Positions 20,062 through 50,989 of a DNA stretch of 64,000 bases are shown here, piece by piece. How positions within the stretch are numbered: position 1 is the first letter of the stretch; each line of letters starts with the position of its first letter. The DNA is taken from positions 1-64,000 of the forward strand of contig PXUB01000030.1 in assembly GCA_003009755.1 (NCBI GenBank), given 5' to 3'. The notes beneath the pieces are model-generated. The model worked only from the letters and a program-made list of their open reading frames with translations, was not told the DNA's origin and did no database searches. Origin of the DNA: Thermoplasmatales archaeon SW_10_69_26. GTDB lineage: Archaea > Thermoplasmatota > SW-10-69-26. Position numbers and translations under genes: made by a program.

Positions 20062-20756
20062 GCGAGCATCCGACCGTGCGGTATCCCCCGGCCAAGGATG
20101 CTCGCAGTTCGGGCGGATCGGAGATCCGCCTTCCTTCGAGGGTCGGACCCGTGTGGTCGCCGCCGGGTCAGCGACCCTCGAAGTTCGCCAGAATCGTGTG
20201 CTCGGTGTCGGTTCGGGCTTCTGCGAGCATCGGACCGCACGGTGGGCACCGGTCAACGATGCTCGCAGTTCGCACGGCCTCGGCGGTGGGCGTGGTCGGC
20301 CGTGCTCTCCCGAGAGACCGCCTTCTGCGGACGCGAGGTGCCCGAGGGGCTGCGGTCTCTCGGGATTCGTACCCCCGGCTACATCCTATCCTCTGTGGAC
20401 GATGGCTGTGAGGATAGGATGTACGCGAGCATCCGACCGTGTGGTATCCCCCGGCCAAGGATGCTCGCAGTTCGCACGAACGCCCGGGCAAGTGGCACCC
20501 GGCGTTCGTGCTCTCCTCAGCTCCAGCTGTCGCTCTGTCGACCTGCTGGAGCTGAGGACGGTGGTTACCGGTGGTCGCTCGGGGTCTTCACATCAGGCCT
20601 CTGCGAGCATCGGACCGCACGGTGGGCACCGGTCAACGATGCTCGCAGTTCGTACGAACGTCGGCTCTCTCTCCACGAGGTCTGCAGAGCAGACGTTCGT
20701 ACTCCCGCTACATCCTATCCTCTGTGAGGCTGTGGCTGTGAGGATAGGATGTAGCG
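20062..20756. repeat. Mosaic array of hairpin modules 3' of tRNA-Arg(GCG)
   Basis: Four copies of gcgagcatc...gatgctcgcagttcg, two copies of tacatcctatcctc...gaggataggatgta, and other palindromes joined by 1-4 nt linkers. Confidence 0.9.
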
Positions 20757-25146: not shown

Positions 25147-25836
25147 ATGGCTTCGAAGACGCGCGCGATCCTCCTGGCTGTCGTGTTGTTGGGCGCCGGG
25201 CTGGCCGGGTGTGCAGAGACCGACGACACCGGCACCGACGACACGACCGATGACGAAGACACCGGGGACCGAGATACCGGCGACCGCGACACCGGGGAGC
25301 GGGACACGGGTGAGCGCGACATCGGTGACCAGAACCAGACCGATCGCAACGATACCGGTACCCAAGACGCCCAGATGCAGGACTACAACGAGACCTTCGA
25401 GGGCACGATCGACGGTGAGAACCACGAGGAGAACTTCACGTTCCCGGTCAACGACTCCCAGGCCAACCTCACGGTCGAAGCCAACCTGCAGGGTGACGCG
25501 GTCGACGACTTCGAGGCCACCGTCTGGGACGCCGAGATGGAAGAGGTCTGCACGGTCTCCGACAGCGGCACCGACGTGGGAACCGGCATGGGTGACGACG
25601 AAAGCCGCTGCGAAGAGGCGACCCAGAACATGGGGAACTACACCCTGCAGGTCTGGGGCAACTCCACCACCGAGGACGCCGACTACACGCTCAACGTGAC
25701 CGTGGAGTACGGCGACCAGCAGACCACGACCGACGACACCGGCAACGGCGGCGACGATCGCCAGACCGATCCGCGGCAGACCGACGAGCGGCGGACCGGC
25801 GACGCGGACGGGTCCGACGACGGTATCTACAACTGA
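25147..25836 (+). CDS. Acidic lipoprotein with GDRDT pentapeptide repeats and a PPC-like beta domain
   Basis: LAGC lipobox; (GD/ERDT)n; GNYTLQV...YTLNVTVEY. Confidence 0.75.
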   Translation: MASKTRAILLAVVLLGAGLAGCAETDDTGTDDTTDDEDTGDRDTGDRDTGERDTGERDIGDQNQTDRNDTGTQDAQMQDYNETFEGTIDGENHEENFTFPVNDSQANLTVEANLQGDAVDDFEATVWDAEMEEVCTVSDSGTDVGTGMGDDESRCEEATQNMGNYTLQVWGNSTTEDADYTLNVTVEYGDQQTTTDDTGNGGDDRQTDPRQTDERRTGDADGSDDGIYN

Positions 25837-26049
25837 GCTCTCGGTCGGGCCGCCGTCGACACCCGACCCGGGCCGGGGCCCCAGGGGCCAGGGTCTGTCT
25901 TGCCCTCTGTTCTCATCGGCGACGGAGCGAGGGACACCGTCGCGCCGAGGCCACGCTGAGGCCGGATCGTCCACGGTCAGATGTTCGGGACGTCCACGCA
26001 GCGATCCCCGCGTGCGCTCGAGCCCGCTCGGCGAAGGAGACGTTCTTCC

Positions 26050-26272
26050 ATCGAGGGTTGGACCCAAGCGATGGGAGCCGGGTCAACAACCCTCGAAGTT
26101 CGCCCGAACCGGGCGCTAGATGTCGGTTCGGGCTCCCGCGAGCGTCAGACCGTGTGGTATCCTCCGGCCAAGGATGCTCGCAGCTCGCACGAACGCCCGG
26201 GCAAGTGGCGCCGGGCGTTCGTGCTCTCCTCAGCTCCAGCTGTCGCTCTGTCGACCTGCTGGAGCTGAGGAC
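26050..26272. repeat. Mosaic hairpin array 3' of tRNA-Arg(CCG)
   Basis: Same modules as 20134-20220 and 20425-20561, near-identical over about 135 bp. Confidence 0.9.
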
Positions 26273-33360: not shown

Positions 33361-34190
33361 AGCTCGGCTCGGCCAACGCCCTCCGATTGACCGCCGGCGT
33401 GGCCCTCGCCGCCACCGCGATGCTTCTCACGCATCCCGCCTCCGTCGTCGCCAGCCTCCTACTGGCGCTCGTGCTCGCCTGGCGCGTGGATCTCTTCGCC
33501 CGAGCCCGCGCGCTCGCCGTCGCCGCGGGCACGATCGGACTCGCCGTCCTCGCCTTAAACGCCGCCTTCGCCTGGCAAGGCGCGAGGGTCCTCTGGGAAG
33601 CCCCGTTCCGCATCACCTGGCTGGGCCGACCCCGGCTCACGCTCGAGGCGATGGCCTGGGGCGCCACGGCCGGCGTCCAGCTGACCACCACCGTGCTCGC
33701 CCTCGCCGCCGCCACCGTCGCCGTCCCCCCCGAGGCCCTCAACCGCGCCATGGAGCGGCTGGGCCTGCCACCCAGCCTGGCCCGCGCCGGCGGCCTGGCC
33801 CTGCGCCTGGTCCCCGACACGGCTCAGGATGCCCGCTCCATGCGCGAGGCCCTGCGGACCCGCGGCGTCGACACGTCCACGATCCGCGGCGCCACGCAGA
33901 CCCTCGTCCCGCTGACCGCCCGCTCGCTCGACCGCGCCGCCGTCGCCGAGGAGGCCCTGCTCGTGCGCGGCTACGACGCCGACGACCGCCGCACCGGCTG
34001 GCCGCCGGCCGCCTACCTCGCCCTCGCCGCCGCCACCGTCGCCGGCCTCGTCGCCTTCCTCGGCCCGGGGCGGCCGAGCTTCTACCCCACCGTGAGCCTC
34101 CCGCTCGATCCCGCCAGCCTCGCCCTCGTCGGCCTCGCGCTGGCGATCCCCGTGTTCCTCGTCGGGAGGGTGCCCCGATGCTCGAACTAG
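33357..34190 (+). CDS. ECF transporter transmembrane component T
   Basis: Multi-TM; LRLVP, ALRTRG and ALLVRGY xRG motifs. Confidence 0.88.
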   Translation: MKLGSANALRLTAGVALAATAMLLTHPASVVASLLLALVLAWRVDLFARARALAVAAGTIGLAVLALNAAFAWQGARVLWEAPFRITWLGRPRLTLEAMAWGATAGVQLTTTVLALAAATVAVPPEALNRAMERLGLPPSLARAGGLALRLVPDTAQDARSMREALRTRGVDTSTIRGATQTLVPLTARSLDRAAVAEEALLVRGYDADDRRTGWPPAAYLALAAATVAGLVAFLGPGRPSFYPTVSLPLDPASLALVGLALAIPVFLVGRVPRCSN

Positions 34191-47800: not shown

Positions 47801-48844
47801 AGTGCTTCTCGGGGTGTCTCAGTAACCCCCTCTACGCCGCTGCCCCCAACTGCCCCGATCGTTTGAGCCGCTCGTTCGGCCGCGGCAGCATCTCCACAAT
47901 GCCTCGCAACGCTTTGTTGAGGGCCCGCCCGAGGAACGGGCGGTGGTTGAAGCGGAATGTGAACGCGTCCAAGTACGGCTGCACGTTCCAGTCCTCCACG
48001 TAGGCGTGCACCCTATACAGCACGCGTTTGAGGTTGCTGAACACCGTGTGACTCCACGGCAGCACATCGTGCATCTGCTCGCCCTCCTCGCGATCGGGCT
48101 GGCGAACCTCGCGCTCGTAGGCCGCAAGCCCGTTGTAGCCGTCCCCGTTGTCCGTCCACTAACATCGAGCCTTCCTGCACGCGGACTCGCACGGTGGGGG
48201 CCAGGTTCTCGCCGCCGGCGCCGGGCACGCATTGCAGGTGCAGGTTGCCGGCTTCCTCGTCCTTGTTGTCGACGAGGGCGACCACGCACTGCTTGCTGGT
48301 GCCCCGGCCTGAGGAATCGTCCGGGCGCTTGCCGCCCACGTAGGTTTCATCGGCTTCCCCCACGCCGTCTAACGATCGCTGCTGGGCGCGTCTCAGGATG
48401 CGGTAGATCTTCTGGCGGATGTTGTGCGCGGTCTCCGCGTGCACGCCCAACGTGCGGGCGAGCTCGGGCTCCGTGATGCCCTTCTTGGTTTTGATGACGT
48501 GGTAGATGGCCAGGAACCAGGTCTGTAGGTCGAGTTTGGTGTCCTGGAGGATCGTGCCCGCGGTCACGCTGGTTTGCTTGCGGCACGCGTAGCACTCGAA
48601 CACGTGGCGGGTCTGGATGAGGCCCCAGGGCTCGTCCTCGCCGCAATCCGGGCACGTGAAGCCGTCCTTGCCCCAGCGGTGCTCGCGGAGGTATTGCCAG
48701 CAGTCCTCCTCGGTGGGGTGTGTGTTGACGAATTCGGTCAGGCTGGGCAACGCGTCATCGGTCATGCTCCCGAAGATGGGCGATGGAGGGGTGTGGGTTC
48801 AGTCCGGGGTGGCTCGGTACCACTGACACAGGCCGAGAAGCACT
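47801..48844 (-). mobile_element. IS1595-family insertion sequence
   Basis: TIRs agtgcttctcggggtgtctcagt / actgacacaggccgagaagcact; flanking direct repeat TTCGACGTT at 47792-47800 and 48845-48853. Confidence 0.93.
47832..48765 (-). pseudogene. IS1595 transposase, frameshifted near 48157
   Basis: Zn ribbon CPDC..CYAC, HTH, EADETYVGG, then in a shifted frame TDNGDGY and HTVFSNLKR, YLDAFTFRFN. Confidence 0.9.
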
Positions 48845-48964
48845 TTCGACGTTTTACCGTCGAAGGTTTGCTCGGGAGACCTTGAATGCGATTAGCCACG
48901 CCGCGCCGCCTCACATCAAACTCTTATACGCCTCCCCCATATATCTGGCCTGCGCGGAAGCGTT

Positions 48965-49037
48965 GCGGGTGTAGTATAGTCTGGTAGTACACGGCCTTGC
49001 CATGGCCGTTGCGCGTGTTCAAATCACGCCACCCGCA
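48965..49037 (+). tRNA. tRNA-Gly(GCC)
   Basis: GCGGGUG...CGGCC-UUGCCAU-GGCCG...GUUCAAAUC...CACCCGC-A; TATA-like elements upstream. Confidence 0.96.
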
Positions 49038-49365
49038 TCCTCTCTCGCGTTGATTCCTCAGGGACTCCCATCGCCAGGCTCGGCTGAGGGGCCGCTGGCG
49101 GTGTCGCGCTGCATCGGAATCCCTCCGAGGGAGCGTCACGTGCGGGTGGCGTGAGCGGACGGCCGGCCGCAGCCACCGCCGAGGGCGTGCGAATCGAGAG
49201 CATCCGTAGCCGACGCGACCGTGCGGCTCGATGCTCTCGAGTGGCCAGATCTGCGATCTGGTCGAATCTCAGGGCCGACGGCGGAAATCGCCCGTCGGTC
49301 CTGAAGCCACCCGCATCCTCTCTCGCGTCGAGTCCTCGGTTCGCACGGCCTTCGGCCGTGCTCTC
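49028..49365. repeat. tRNA-Gly trailer with direct and inverted copies of the tRNA 3' end and hairpin modules
   Basis: 23-bp direct repeat 49028-49050 / 49306-49328; 14-bp inverted copy 49141-49154; hairpins related to those at the tRNA-Arg genes. Confidence 0.85.
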
Positions 49366-49663
49366 GTGAGGGGGGTGTGCTCTGCGTGTGAAGAGGAGGC
49401 GGGGGGCCGGGGGAGACGCCACCGGCCCCCGTCGAGGCGCCGACGGGCACAGCTGGGAGGCAAGGTCCGTCGCGGTCGTAGGCGGGTCAGCGGTAGGGAG
49501 TCGCACTGCCCTCCGACGCCAAATCGTGACAACTAGTGTCACAGTATCAAGGTTGCGGTTCGGTCGCCTCGGGCGAGGTGCGTCGACCCGGCCCGCGGGG
49601 GCTGTGGGCCGACACGGAACGACTTAACTCCCGAGGCCCGTTCCCTGCCGCACGAGGGTCACG

Positions 49664-50989
49664 ATGGCTGAGCCGAAGATCACGGTCGAGCCCCCGGGAC
49701 CGGAAGCCAGGAAGGTGCTCGAGCGCGACGACGACGCGATCATCACGAACACGCGCACCACGCCCGTCGTCGCCGAGAGCGCCGACGGCTGGCTCGTCGA
49801 GGACGTCGACGGCAACCGCTTCCTCGACTTCTCCAGCGGGATCGCCGTCGTCAACACCGGCCACTGCCACCCCGGCGTGGTCGACGCCGTGCAGGACCAG
49901 GCCGAGGACCTGATGCACTTCGCCGGCACCGACTTCTACTACGACGCCCAGGTCAGCTACGCCGAGCGTCTGACCGAGCTCGCCCCCGTGCCCGACGGCA
50001 AGGTCTTCTACACCAACTCCGGGACCGAGGGCACCGAGGCCTCGATGAAGCTGGCCCGCCACAACACCGGCCGGCCCGGCTTCCTGGCCTTCCGGCAATG
50101 CTTCCACGGTCGCACGTTCGGCTCGCTGAGCCTGACGGCGAGCAAGGCCGAGCAGCGCCGCGGCTTCCAGCCGTTGCTGGCCGGCGTCTTCCACGTGCCC
50201 TTCCCGAACCCCTACCGCAACCCCTGGGACATCGACGGCTACGCAGAGCCCGACGAGCTCACCAACCGCGTCCTCGACCGCGTCGAGGAGCTGTTCGAGG
50301 GCCTGGCTCCGCCCGAGGACATCGCCGCCTTCTTCGCCGAACCGATCCAGGGCGAAGGCGGCTACGTCATGCCGCCGGAGGGCTTCTTCGGCCGGCTCGC
50401 GTCCCTGCTCGACGAGCACGGGATCTTGCTCGGCATCGACGAGGTGCAGACCGGCTTCGGCCGCACCGGCGAGCTGTTCGCCGCCGACCTCTTCGACGTC
50501 GAACCCGACCTCATCTGGCTGGCCAAGGGCATCGCCTCCGGCCTGCCGATGGGCGCCGTCGTCGCCCGCGAGGAGCTGGACTTCCCCTACAAGGGCGCCC
50601 ACTCCAACACCTACGGCGGCAACCTCGTCGCCCTCTCGGCCGCCGAGGCCACCCTCGACGCCATCGAGGACGAGGACATGCTCGCCAACACCCGCGAGGT
50701 CGGCGACCACATGCGCGAGCGCCTCGAGGAGATCCAGGCCAAACACGAACCCATCGGCGACGTCCGCGGCGTCGGCCTCATGCAGGCCATCGACCTCGTC
50801 CAGGACCACGAGACGAGGGAACCGGCCAACCAGCTGCAAGGCAAGGTCGTGCAGGGCATGTTCAAGCGCGGCGTGCTCGTGCTACCCTGCGGGTCCAGCT
50901 CGATCCGGTTCATCCCACCCCTGAACGTCGACCGGTCCTCGGTGGACGCGGCCGTCGAGGTGCTTGAGGAAACCTTGAAGGCGGTGTGA
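49664..50989 (+). CDS. Class III PLP aminotransferase (acetylornithine/4-aminobutyrate family)
   Basis: NSGTE, FHGRT, EPIQGEGG, DEVQTGFGRTG, AKGIASG. Confidence 0.93.
   Translation: MAEPKITVEPPGPEARKVLERDDDAIITNTRTTPVVAESADGWLVEDVDGNRFLDFSSGIAVVNTGHCHPGVVDAVQDQAEDLMHFAGTDFYYDAQVSYAERLTELAPVPDGKVFYTNSGTEGTEASMKLARHNTGRPGFLAFRQCFHGRTFGSLSLTASKAEQRRGFQPLLAGVFHVPFPNPYRNPWDIDGYAEPDELTNRVLDRVEELFEGLAPPEDIAAFFAEPIQGEGGYVMPPEGFFGRLASLLDEHGILLGIDEVQTGFGRTGELFAADLFDVEPDLIWLAKGIASGLPMGAVVAREELDFPYKGAHSNTYGGNLVALSAAEATLDAIEDEDMLANTREVGDHMRERLEEIQAKHEPIGDVRGVGLMQAIDLVQDHETREPANQLQGKVVQGMFKRGVLVLPCGSSSIRFIPPLNVDRSSVDAAVEVLEETLKAV

Follow-up and report, generated by a model that had tools for sequence, protein, structure and literature searches.

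A hairpin-rich unit behind tRNA-Gly(GCC) of a halite archaeon, and its counterparts at the ends of other tRNA genes

The tRNA-Gly(GCC) trailer

The DNA analyzed here (the window) is a 64,000-nucleotide stretch, positions 1 to 64,000 of contig PXUB01000030.1 (C30:1-64000), from Thermoplasmatales archaeon SW_10_69_26, a halite archaeon represented by a metagenome-assembled genome (MAG) of 2.8 Mb (69% G+C; 49 contigs; 95% complete). Behind the tRNA-Gly(GCC) gene of this window lies a trailer in which the last 14 nt of the tRNA gene are the segment that is reused, and one part of this trailer (49137-49316) is an ordinary member of a family of hairpin-rich units that is abundant in the genome, rather than a special tRNA-Gly device. 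The locus comprises the following features, all on the plus strand:

48965-49037 (+), tRNA-Gly(GCC), without encoded CCA (Rfam RF00005, 64.8 bits; ARAGORN 48964-49040)
49028-49059 (+), direct repeat copy 1, in which the final 10 nt of the tRNA are followed by 22 nt of trailer that form the head of module 1
49056-49131 (+), truncated copy of module 1 with the 3' third gone (BLAST to C47, C42 with two copies, C43, C1, C19, and C25; 10-copy alignment)
49141-49154 (+), antisense copy (A') of the last 14 nt of the tRNA; together with G49140, the 5' strand of closing stem P1
49151-49189 (+), hairpin Ha, with a loop common to the tRNA-Gly(CCC) unit on C2 and to window positions 20268-20309 (fold; BLAST)
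49194-49240 (+), bulged hairpin Hb, homologous to hairpins of both tRNA-Arg trailers (fold; inverted-repeat arms)
49242-49264 (+), small hairpin Hc of GGATC type, recurring in units of C32, C19, C2, and C11 (fold)
49269-49304 (+), hairpin Hd (inverted repeat and fold)
49306-49337 (+), direct repeat copy 2: 49306-49315 duplicate the final 10 nt of the tRNA and supply the 3' strand of P1, and the remainder is trailer head
49339-49365 (+), short hairpin, an Ha-type stem in inverted form with a 4-nt loop (BLAST)

A sequence-only reading of this stretch had reported a 23-bp direct repeat beginning in the tRNA 3' end, a 14-nt antisense copy of that end, a bulged hairpin, and a short hairpin sharing both ends with another site of the window, all of which we confirm. 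The direct repeat (49028-49059 and 49306-49337) is longer than had been stated, with 94% identity over 32 nt and an exact match over the first 23 nt; the 23-mer occurs exactly twice in the window with up to three mismatches allowed, and two matches arose in none of 100 shuffles. The antisense copy (49141-49154) and positions 49024-49037 are exact reverse complements of each other; this 14-mer has only two matches in the window at one mismatch or fewer (expectation 0.06), a count reached in 0/100 shuffles. The arms of hairpin Hb (49189-49204 and 49230-49245) are 88% complementary, and the ends of the hairpin at 49339-49365 (13 and 12 nt) are also present at 20268-20309, there with a long loop instead of a short one.

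The same reading had taken the stretch bracketed by the direct repeat for an integrated mini-element that lacks an integrase. The absence of an integrase was rightly noted: the three open reading frames (ORFs) spanning the trailer region have no match in Pfam, and in a search of Rfam 15 (including RtT, ribozymes, and C/D sRNA) positions 48000-50500 matched tRNA only. The stretch is non-coding, repeats the tRNA end, and was apparently gained, but it is not one element of about 278 bp bracketed by attachment (att) sites. The bracketed DNA is a composite, in which the truncated module 1 copy (49056-49131) is followed by one hairpin unit (49137-49316), and the repeat runs 22 nt past the tRNA because the head of module 1 follows both tail copies. 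The unit has a predicted fold of -111.6 kcal/mol (z = -6.9), in which four hairpins are enclosed by stem P1, formed by the pairing of 49140-49150 with 49306-49316, that is, of the antisense copy with the distal direct copy. On this predicted fold, the antisense copy is a standard component of the unit and constitutes the 5' strand of its closing stem.

In genomes of four other genera of the same family (4/4), tRNA-Gly(GCC) has no tail copies of at least 9 nt within 480 nt, and the stretch therefore looks gained rather than ancestral; tail copies are present in both of the other-family genomes examined. Contigs from halite metagenomes provide hints of strain variation, short of proof: in one, 49315 is joined to 49137 with 27 other letters between, corresponding to tandem units with a short spacer; another joint skips 49190-49262, between two CGAATC words; and one contig matches from 49132 on and diverges before it. 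The adjacency of tRNA, module 1, and unit rests on the MAG assembly, as no listed contig of the best-matching run bridges 49084-49131, and other contigs carry a 27-nt spacer instead.

Units matched to their own tRNA

Units of this family have a recognizable architecture, recur across the genome and in other lineages, match the tRNA behind which they lie, and are patchily present between genera. For the genome-wide comparison, we retained 52 of the 57 tRNA genes called by ARAGORN (three with undetermined anticodons were dropped, as were tRNA-Pro on C33 and tRNA-Arg at C38:42879, both longer than 90 nt), and defined a self-match as a copy of at least 10 nt of a tRNA's own last 25 nt, no more than 400 nt downstream. 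A direct copy was found behind 21/52 tRNAs and an antisense copy behind 18/52, with both present at 15 and either at 24. As controls, the tRNAs' own upstream regions gave direct copies in 4/52 cases and antisense copies in 0/52, and the trailers of other tRNAs gave 47/2488 and 172/2488, respectively (2-7%). When at least 14 nt were required, the own-trailer counts were 15 direct and 13 antisense, compared with 0 and 6 in the mismatched control. BLAST of the Gly trailer against its own genome showed that parts of it recur at many loci; four of these were read, and each has the order tRNA, spacer, antisense copy of the tRNA's own tail, hairpins, and direct tail copy. This scaffold was found at tRNAs of at least 15 specificities, with each unit matched to its own tRNA.

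Tandem arrays are present at tRNA-Leu(TAG), tRNA-Arg(TCG), tRNA-Gly(TCC), and tRNA-Ala(GGC), where the tail copy, spacer, and inverted copy are identical and the hairpins differ. Homologous spacers (CTTCTCC...CAG...) are shared by Gly-CCC, Gly-TCC, Leu-CAA, Leu-CAG, and Phe. Neither tRNA-Arg gene of the window belongs to the 24 self-matched cases; their trailers have no copy of their own tRNA end longer than 9 nt, though they share hairpin modules with the Gly trailer. The proposal that all three tRNAs of the window have related trailers is only partly right: the Gly trailer aligns with that of Arg(GCG) over an 88-nt stretch of two hairpins (76% identity; E 2e-13), and with that of Arg(CCG) over only 27 nt (E 0.056). 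The two tRNA-Arg trailers, at 20150-20753 (-) and 25800-26268 (-), have long hairpin stretches in common, and the first 45 nt of the Arg(GCG) trailer, a hairpin directly after the tRNA, are repeated about 360 nt downstream without a tRNA-end copy.

In the predicted folds of 22 extracted units, the closing stem is in most cases made by the inverted and direct copies. A form with three hairpins is the more frequent one: within P1 (inverted copy paired with direct copy) there follow P2, a short GAAC(C)...(G)GTTC hairpin; P3, of about 12 bp; a GAGAG linker; P4; and then CGnAAATCC. When 15 units were aligned flush, pairing involved 90.2% of cells, versus 72.2% in shuffles, and 19 of the 31 pairs show changes on both sides, which was reached by 0/500 shuffles. 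When P3-P4 are removed, a perfect palindrome remains (T-arm reverse complement, short loop, and the sequence from the T-arm to the 3' end); therefore, the hairpin cassette occupies the T-loop position of a partial tRNA copy. The closing stem is 10-12 bp in the source genome and 5 bp in most lineages, the acceptor strand then being unpaired. Hammerhead, kink-turn, C/D-box, and bulge-helix-bulge readings of the junction were dropped by eye, as the motifs do not fit.

A covariance model (R1) was trained on the high-GC three-hairpin units; it under-detects the four-hairpin type of the window and low-GC relatives, so that its counts are lower bounds. R1 gave 47 matches in the source genome at E ≤1. 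At E ≤1e-3 it matched 8/41 related genomes, the source genome included, the others representing three further genera within its family, two additional families of its class, and one more family of the phylum (two genomes); in a wider sample of the phylum, 6/151 genomes had matches at E ≤1e-4. Ten loci were fetched from seven other genomes, and in all ten the distance of the match from the tRNA in front of it, or from the tRNA-end copy of an earlier unit, is about 15-35 nt, and the stem matches the locus's own tRNA (Ile, Ser, Gln at three loci, Leu at two, Pro, Met, and Val). Rfam searches of nine fetched unit loci returned tRNA and otherwise weak matches far below the gathering score, located on tRNA genes or outside the units. 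A full-text search of a limited literature collection gave no description of trailer units that carry tRNA-matched antisense and direct copies. R1 scores drop along the Arg-TCG and Ala-GGC arrays and not along those of Leu-TAG or Gln-TTG, and decay polarity was not used as evidence.

A mirror-image minority also exists: direct copies of the 5' head were found upstream of 6/52 tRNAs (control 32/2488), and the model matches there are on the opposite strand. Upstream of tRNA-Ser(TGA) (123698-123782 of C1), three mirror-oriented units occupy C1:123218-123674 (-); each ends in a 22-23-nt copy of the 5' head (acceptor strand and D-loop), so that the break is in the D-loop, not the T-loop.

Beyond the phylum, a scan of one genome per species for the motif GGATTTGAACC-N2-5-GGTTCATC identified 41 loci. 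Nineteen of these are bracketed by a direct repeat of 14 nt or more; in 16/19 it begins at (A)AATCC in the T-loop, and most of the repeats span about 17 nt to the discriminator. The bracketed loci are from Methanosarcinales, Aenigmatarchaeota, Woesearchaeota, Nanoarchaeota, and two Clostridia MAGs. Sixteen of the 41 loci were read by eye, of which 13 belong to the 19 bracketed loci (Methanosarcinales, Woesearchaeota, and Nanoarchaeota MAGs, and the two Clostridia). One Woesearchaeota locus (L075) has the full layout with one mismatch in the distal copy, which places it below the 14-nt cut-off; an Aenigmatarchaeota locus (L062) has a T-arm upstream, but neither the P3-P4 cassette nor a distal copy. 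Two bacterial motif loci look like chance matches in coding DNA. The inverted part in low-GC lineages is a generic T-arm complement only, and the long tRNA-specific antisense copy characterizes the lineage of the window. GCGGAAATYC stems are similar across Methanosarcinales, Nanoarchaeota, and Woesearchaeota.

Module 1, which separates the window unit from its tRNA, is a conserved non-coding dispersed element of about 115 nt that is found after tRNA arrays (usually behind the last tail copy of the array) and after protein genes. Its orientation with respect to the gene upstream is invariant, and it might serve as a 3'-end or terminator element. Its consensus is ...CCTCAGGG.CTCCC.TCGCC...GCTGACGGTGTCGC.CTGC.TCGGAA.CCCGC..GGGGATT.CTGC.TCGAGCTCCTTG.CAGC. 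Besides the window copy (49056-49131), the copies are:

C47:53640-53790, module 1 copy
C42:19628-19770, module 1 copy
C42:19968-20110, module 1 copy
C43:7520-7670, module 1 copy
C1:63160-63310 (-), module 1 copy
C19:72735-72880, module 1 copy
C25:90410-90560, module 1 copy
C48:19868-20010, module 1 copy

Origin of the units

We interpret 49137-49316, with moderate confidence, as a member of a family of short DNA cassettes that are gene-less, rich in hairpins, and settled at tRNA gene ends by insertion or duplication at the DNA level. Such a unit comprises a spacer, an inverted copy of the T-arm/acceptor 3' segment of the local tRNA, two to four hairpins with short purine-rich linkers, and a direct copy of the last 10-19 nt of the tRNA; through pairing of the inverted and direct copies, each strand can form a closed multi-hairpin, cloverleaf-like junction. 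The moving part would be the cassette (spacer plus hairpins), which would insert at or just after the tRNA 3' end and duplicate the target from the T-loop to the discriminator (about 17 nt in low-GC lineages), and repeated insertion would generate the tandem arrays. In the lineage of the window, the inverted copy would later have been lengthened to perfect complementarity by palindrome-correcting template switching in which the tRNA arm, being under selection, was the reference. At the tRNA-Gly(GCC) locus, the truncated copy of a second dispersed module separates the unit from the tRNA. Were the trailer transcribed, the antisense copy would be sequestered from the tRNA by the closed stem, an effect that we regard as incidental rather than as a function.

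A wider formulation is possible, although we offer it tentatively: that the units belong to a class of DNA elements found across domains, gene-less and cloverleaf-shaped, 75-180 nt long, with tRNA ends as their homing sites. Each would carry a T-arm look-alike hairpin, insert right after the discriminator, and duplicate the T-loop-to-end segment (about 17 nt) by a staggered cut (Cas1-like) or by folded single-strand recombination; in some lineages the inverted copy would grow into a perfect antisense of the tRNA tail.

Several observations weigh against the interpretation as inserted DNA cassettes. The repeat in the source genome covers 10-19 nt of tRNA plus 0-22 nt of trailer, which is looser than expected of a fixed staggered cut, and the conserved loop and linker motifs (CGGTGGA in P3 and GAGAG between P3 and P4) would not be needed by a plain selfish palindrome. 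The tRNA-sense strand folds better in 20/26 units of the source genome, which would be compatible with the units acting in a strand-specific way, as RNA or single-stranded DNA, and the palindrome-correction step is presumed. The sequence-only reading had tied its mini-element to empty sites or variation in relatives; copies are lacking at tRNA-Gly(GCC) in the 4/4 same-family genera and variant contigs exist, but the unit-less relatives are other genera with different neighbors and so not strict empty sites. No same-species empty site was seen, and an exact 27-nt T-arm/acceptor scan of metagenome contigs gave 0 matches and hence no strain-level empty site; the variant contigs were matched at 85% likeness and a depth of about 4, so that other organisms are a possible source.

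The enzymology likewise offers no obvious mobilizing agent. Y1 transposase (PF01797) had 0 candidates in the source genome (95% complete) and was found in 0/20 genomes of the same class, with control genomes positive, and mobilization of the type associated with REP doublets forming hairpins (REPINs) or palindrome-associated transposable elements (PATEs) is therefore disfavored. Cas1 (PF01867) had 0 candidates in the source genome, and among the eight R1-positive genomes only one (G035) has a candidate; a current casposon link is therefore disfavored. The source genome encodes three PF00589 tyrosine recombinases, all on other contigs, beside tRNA-Gly(CCC), tRNA-Phe, and tRNA-Glu(CTC); no recombinase was found in or beside the window unit, nor a cognate one in the genome (the search covered tyrosine, not serine, recombinases). 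An IS1595-family transposase ORF (zinc ribbon and ISXO2-like DDE domain) is located at 48013-48765 (-), about 120-200 bp upstream of tRNA-Gly, and its end region (repeated DNA at 48700-48845) recurs at C25:22972-23114 and C32:101764-101858. As regards a miniature inverted-repeat element (MITE) derived from a DDE insertion sequence, the sole inverted "termini" of the window unit are its inverted copy and direct copy, both derived from the target, the comparison with IS1595 ends not being a formal one.

The units might instead be functional RNAs co-transcribed with the tRNA, acting, in the manner of t-elements or mascRNA, as an acceptor/T-arm "top half" mimic cut by RNase P or tRNase Z to release unit-length tRNA-like RNAs, or as antisense and decoy copies that time or check the folding of the pre-tRNA. 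We regard this as unlikely, although it would account for the strong covarying structure, for the conserved loop and linker motifs, and for the ending of the direct copy at the discriminator position; moreover, many of these tRNAs have no T-runs directly after them, which makes read-through plausible. The fold of the full precursor with the minimum free energy (MFE; -200.3 kcal/mol) pairs the genuine 3' end of the tRNA with the antisense copy and the tRNA 5' strand with the distal copy, and the alternative with cloverleaf and closed unit is predicted at -191.3 kcal/mol, a difference of only 9 kcal/mol. The competition between antisense copy and cloverleaf suggested by the sequence-only reading is thus thermodynamically possible according to predicted folds, but the stems contain few G:U pairs, which favors palindromes at the DNA level over an RNA device. 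In 26 units of the source genome, where the sense strand has the better fold as given above, G:U pairs number 63/1100 in the sense strand and 39/1068 in the antisense strand; the corresponding counts for 19 low-GC units are 10/655 and 17/664, and for the tRNAs of the source genome 128/1334 (MFE folds), so that G:U pairs make up 1.5-5.7% in units versus 9.6% in tRNAs. The low-GC units show no strand bias, the sense strand being more stable in 10/19. In addition, mirror-image upstream units would be transcribed antisense; the unit is absent behind tRNA-Gly(GCC) in the 4/4 related genera, and thus is not needed for that tRNA; the 5-bp closing stem of most lineages leaves the acceptor strand unpaired; and nothing other than tRNA is at or near the Rfam gathering score in window positions 48000-50500 or the nine unit loci.

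Direct repeats of a tRNA 3' end are the classic att footprint, and one integrase normally serves one att sequence. The window feature could accordingly be a remnant or non-autonomous element of the cis-mobilizable element (CIME) kind, with the 23-32-bp repeat as attL and attR and a tyrosine integrase acting in trans, but we consider this rather improbable. Repeats of the tRNA 3' end do flank the insert, and decay is seen more often in distal than in proximal copies, in line with accretion (Arg-TCG unit 3, Leu-TAG unit 2, and Ala-GGC unit 2). Integrase elements are present at tRNA-Phe (13 kb), tRNA-Gly(CCC), and tRNA-Glu(CTC), with their distal tail copies lying among units. At tRNA-Phe (C19:58919-72760), a tyrosine-recombinase gene comes after the tRNA, then about 13 kb of DNA, a distal tail copy, a hairpin unit, and module 1; this insert is likely to be an element whose integration parted the unit from its tRNA. 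The tRNA-Gly(CCC) locus (C2:33058-37670) has a four-hairpin unit followed by a tyrosine-recombinase gene (33474-33929, -), and about 4 kb beyond that gene is another unit, whose tail copy has one mismatch. Real integrating elements thus use the tail copies, but three integrase genes, none of them on the contig of the window, cannot explain 24 occupied tRNAs. Furthermore, one scaffold is present at tRNAs of many specificities, the unit is without an integrase remnant, and a CIME-like origin leaves unexplained both the inverted copy and the position of the cassette at the T-loop of the distal copy.

That there is no mobile element at all, and that template switching or fold-back during replication at the T-arm quasi-palindrome has produced a direct-inverted-direct triplication with hairpins as by-products, seems very doubtful: local copying would yield self-matching automatically, P3-P4 removal leaves a perfect T-arm palindrome, the stems are almost purely Watson-Crick, and universal features would suffice given that both archaea and bacteria are affected, but within one genome different tRNAs have homologous hairpins and spacers, and similarity extends between phyla, which argues for spread of sequence rather than independent birth, and the distribution is patchy (R1, 6/151 genomes of the phylum) despite universal T-arms.

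If the units are a distinct kind of insertion cassette, the tRNA ends of many uncultured archaea and some bacteria would be colonized by a class of element missed by standard annotation, because the units have no protein, no Rfam family, and no insertion sequence. They would also multiply the att-like tRNA-end copies at which larger elements land, as at tRNA-Phe and tRNA-Gly(CCC) here, and the long perfect antisense tails in tRNA trailers could affect pre-tRNA folding. The units confuse callers of tRNAs and genomic islands, and break assemblies. It is the family-level pattern, rather than the single locus, that deserves attention.

Comparison with known systems

The distal repeats of the Escherichia coli tyrT-tyrV locus are reportedly 178-bp units associated with the rtT RNA (Rfam RF00391), at one locus in one lineage. 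They resemble the units described here in being tandem, non-coding, and directly behind a tRNA, each with a copy of the tRNA 3' end. They differ in that no RtT match was obtained in window positions 48000-50500 (E up to 1) or in the nine unit loci, and in that about half of the tRNAs are occupied here, each with its own matched inverted and direct copy on a scaffold that extends across phyla.

The att duplications and CIMEs share with the units a direct repeat of the tRNA 3' end flanking an insert (as found in the window), the stacking of units, and an intact tRNA; by contrast, the units are only 100-180 nt, lack an integrase or its remnant, use a shared scaffold at many tRNAs, and contain an internal inverted copy of the target. 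Repetitive extragenic palindromic (REP) sequences, bacterial interspersed mosaic elements (BIMEs), REPINs, and PATEs are likewise short, gene-less, G+C-rich hairpin modules that are intergenic, modular, and strain-variable, but REPs do not copy the end of the flanking gene in both orientations.

In integration of the CTX-phage type, folded single-stranded DNA is said to be used, with an attP hairpin that mimics the chromosomal site. By pure analogy with this system, the stem of two inverted copies in the units would mimic a duplex target, though that stem is only 5-12 bp; integration of a circle of this type would yield the order target, spacer, inverted copy, hairpins, target.

The palindrome that Methanopyrus kandleri carries downstream of tRNA genes (PMC5217627) is a short motif different from the units. 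The casposon of Aciduliprofundum boonei has a 15-bp target duplication that overlaps the 3' end of tRNA-Pro, and the T-loop region is needed as a "leader" (PMC5137440). The duplication of the units, in contrast, begins within the T-loop or T-stem and takes in 10-19 nt of the tRNA instead of 5; no casposon-like terminal inverted repeats were seen by eye, and Cas1 is absent from the source genome and from 6/7 of the other R1-positive genomes. The likenesses to such Cas1-solo systems would be insertion at a tRNA 3' end, a long target duplication by the T-loop palindrome, and repeated insertion leading to repeat-insert arrays. By analogy, the A. boonei casposon is the nearest mechanistic precedent for the units.

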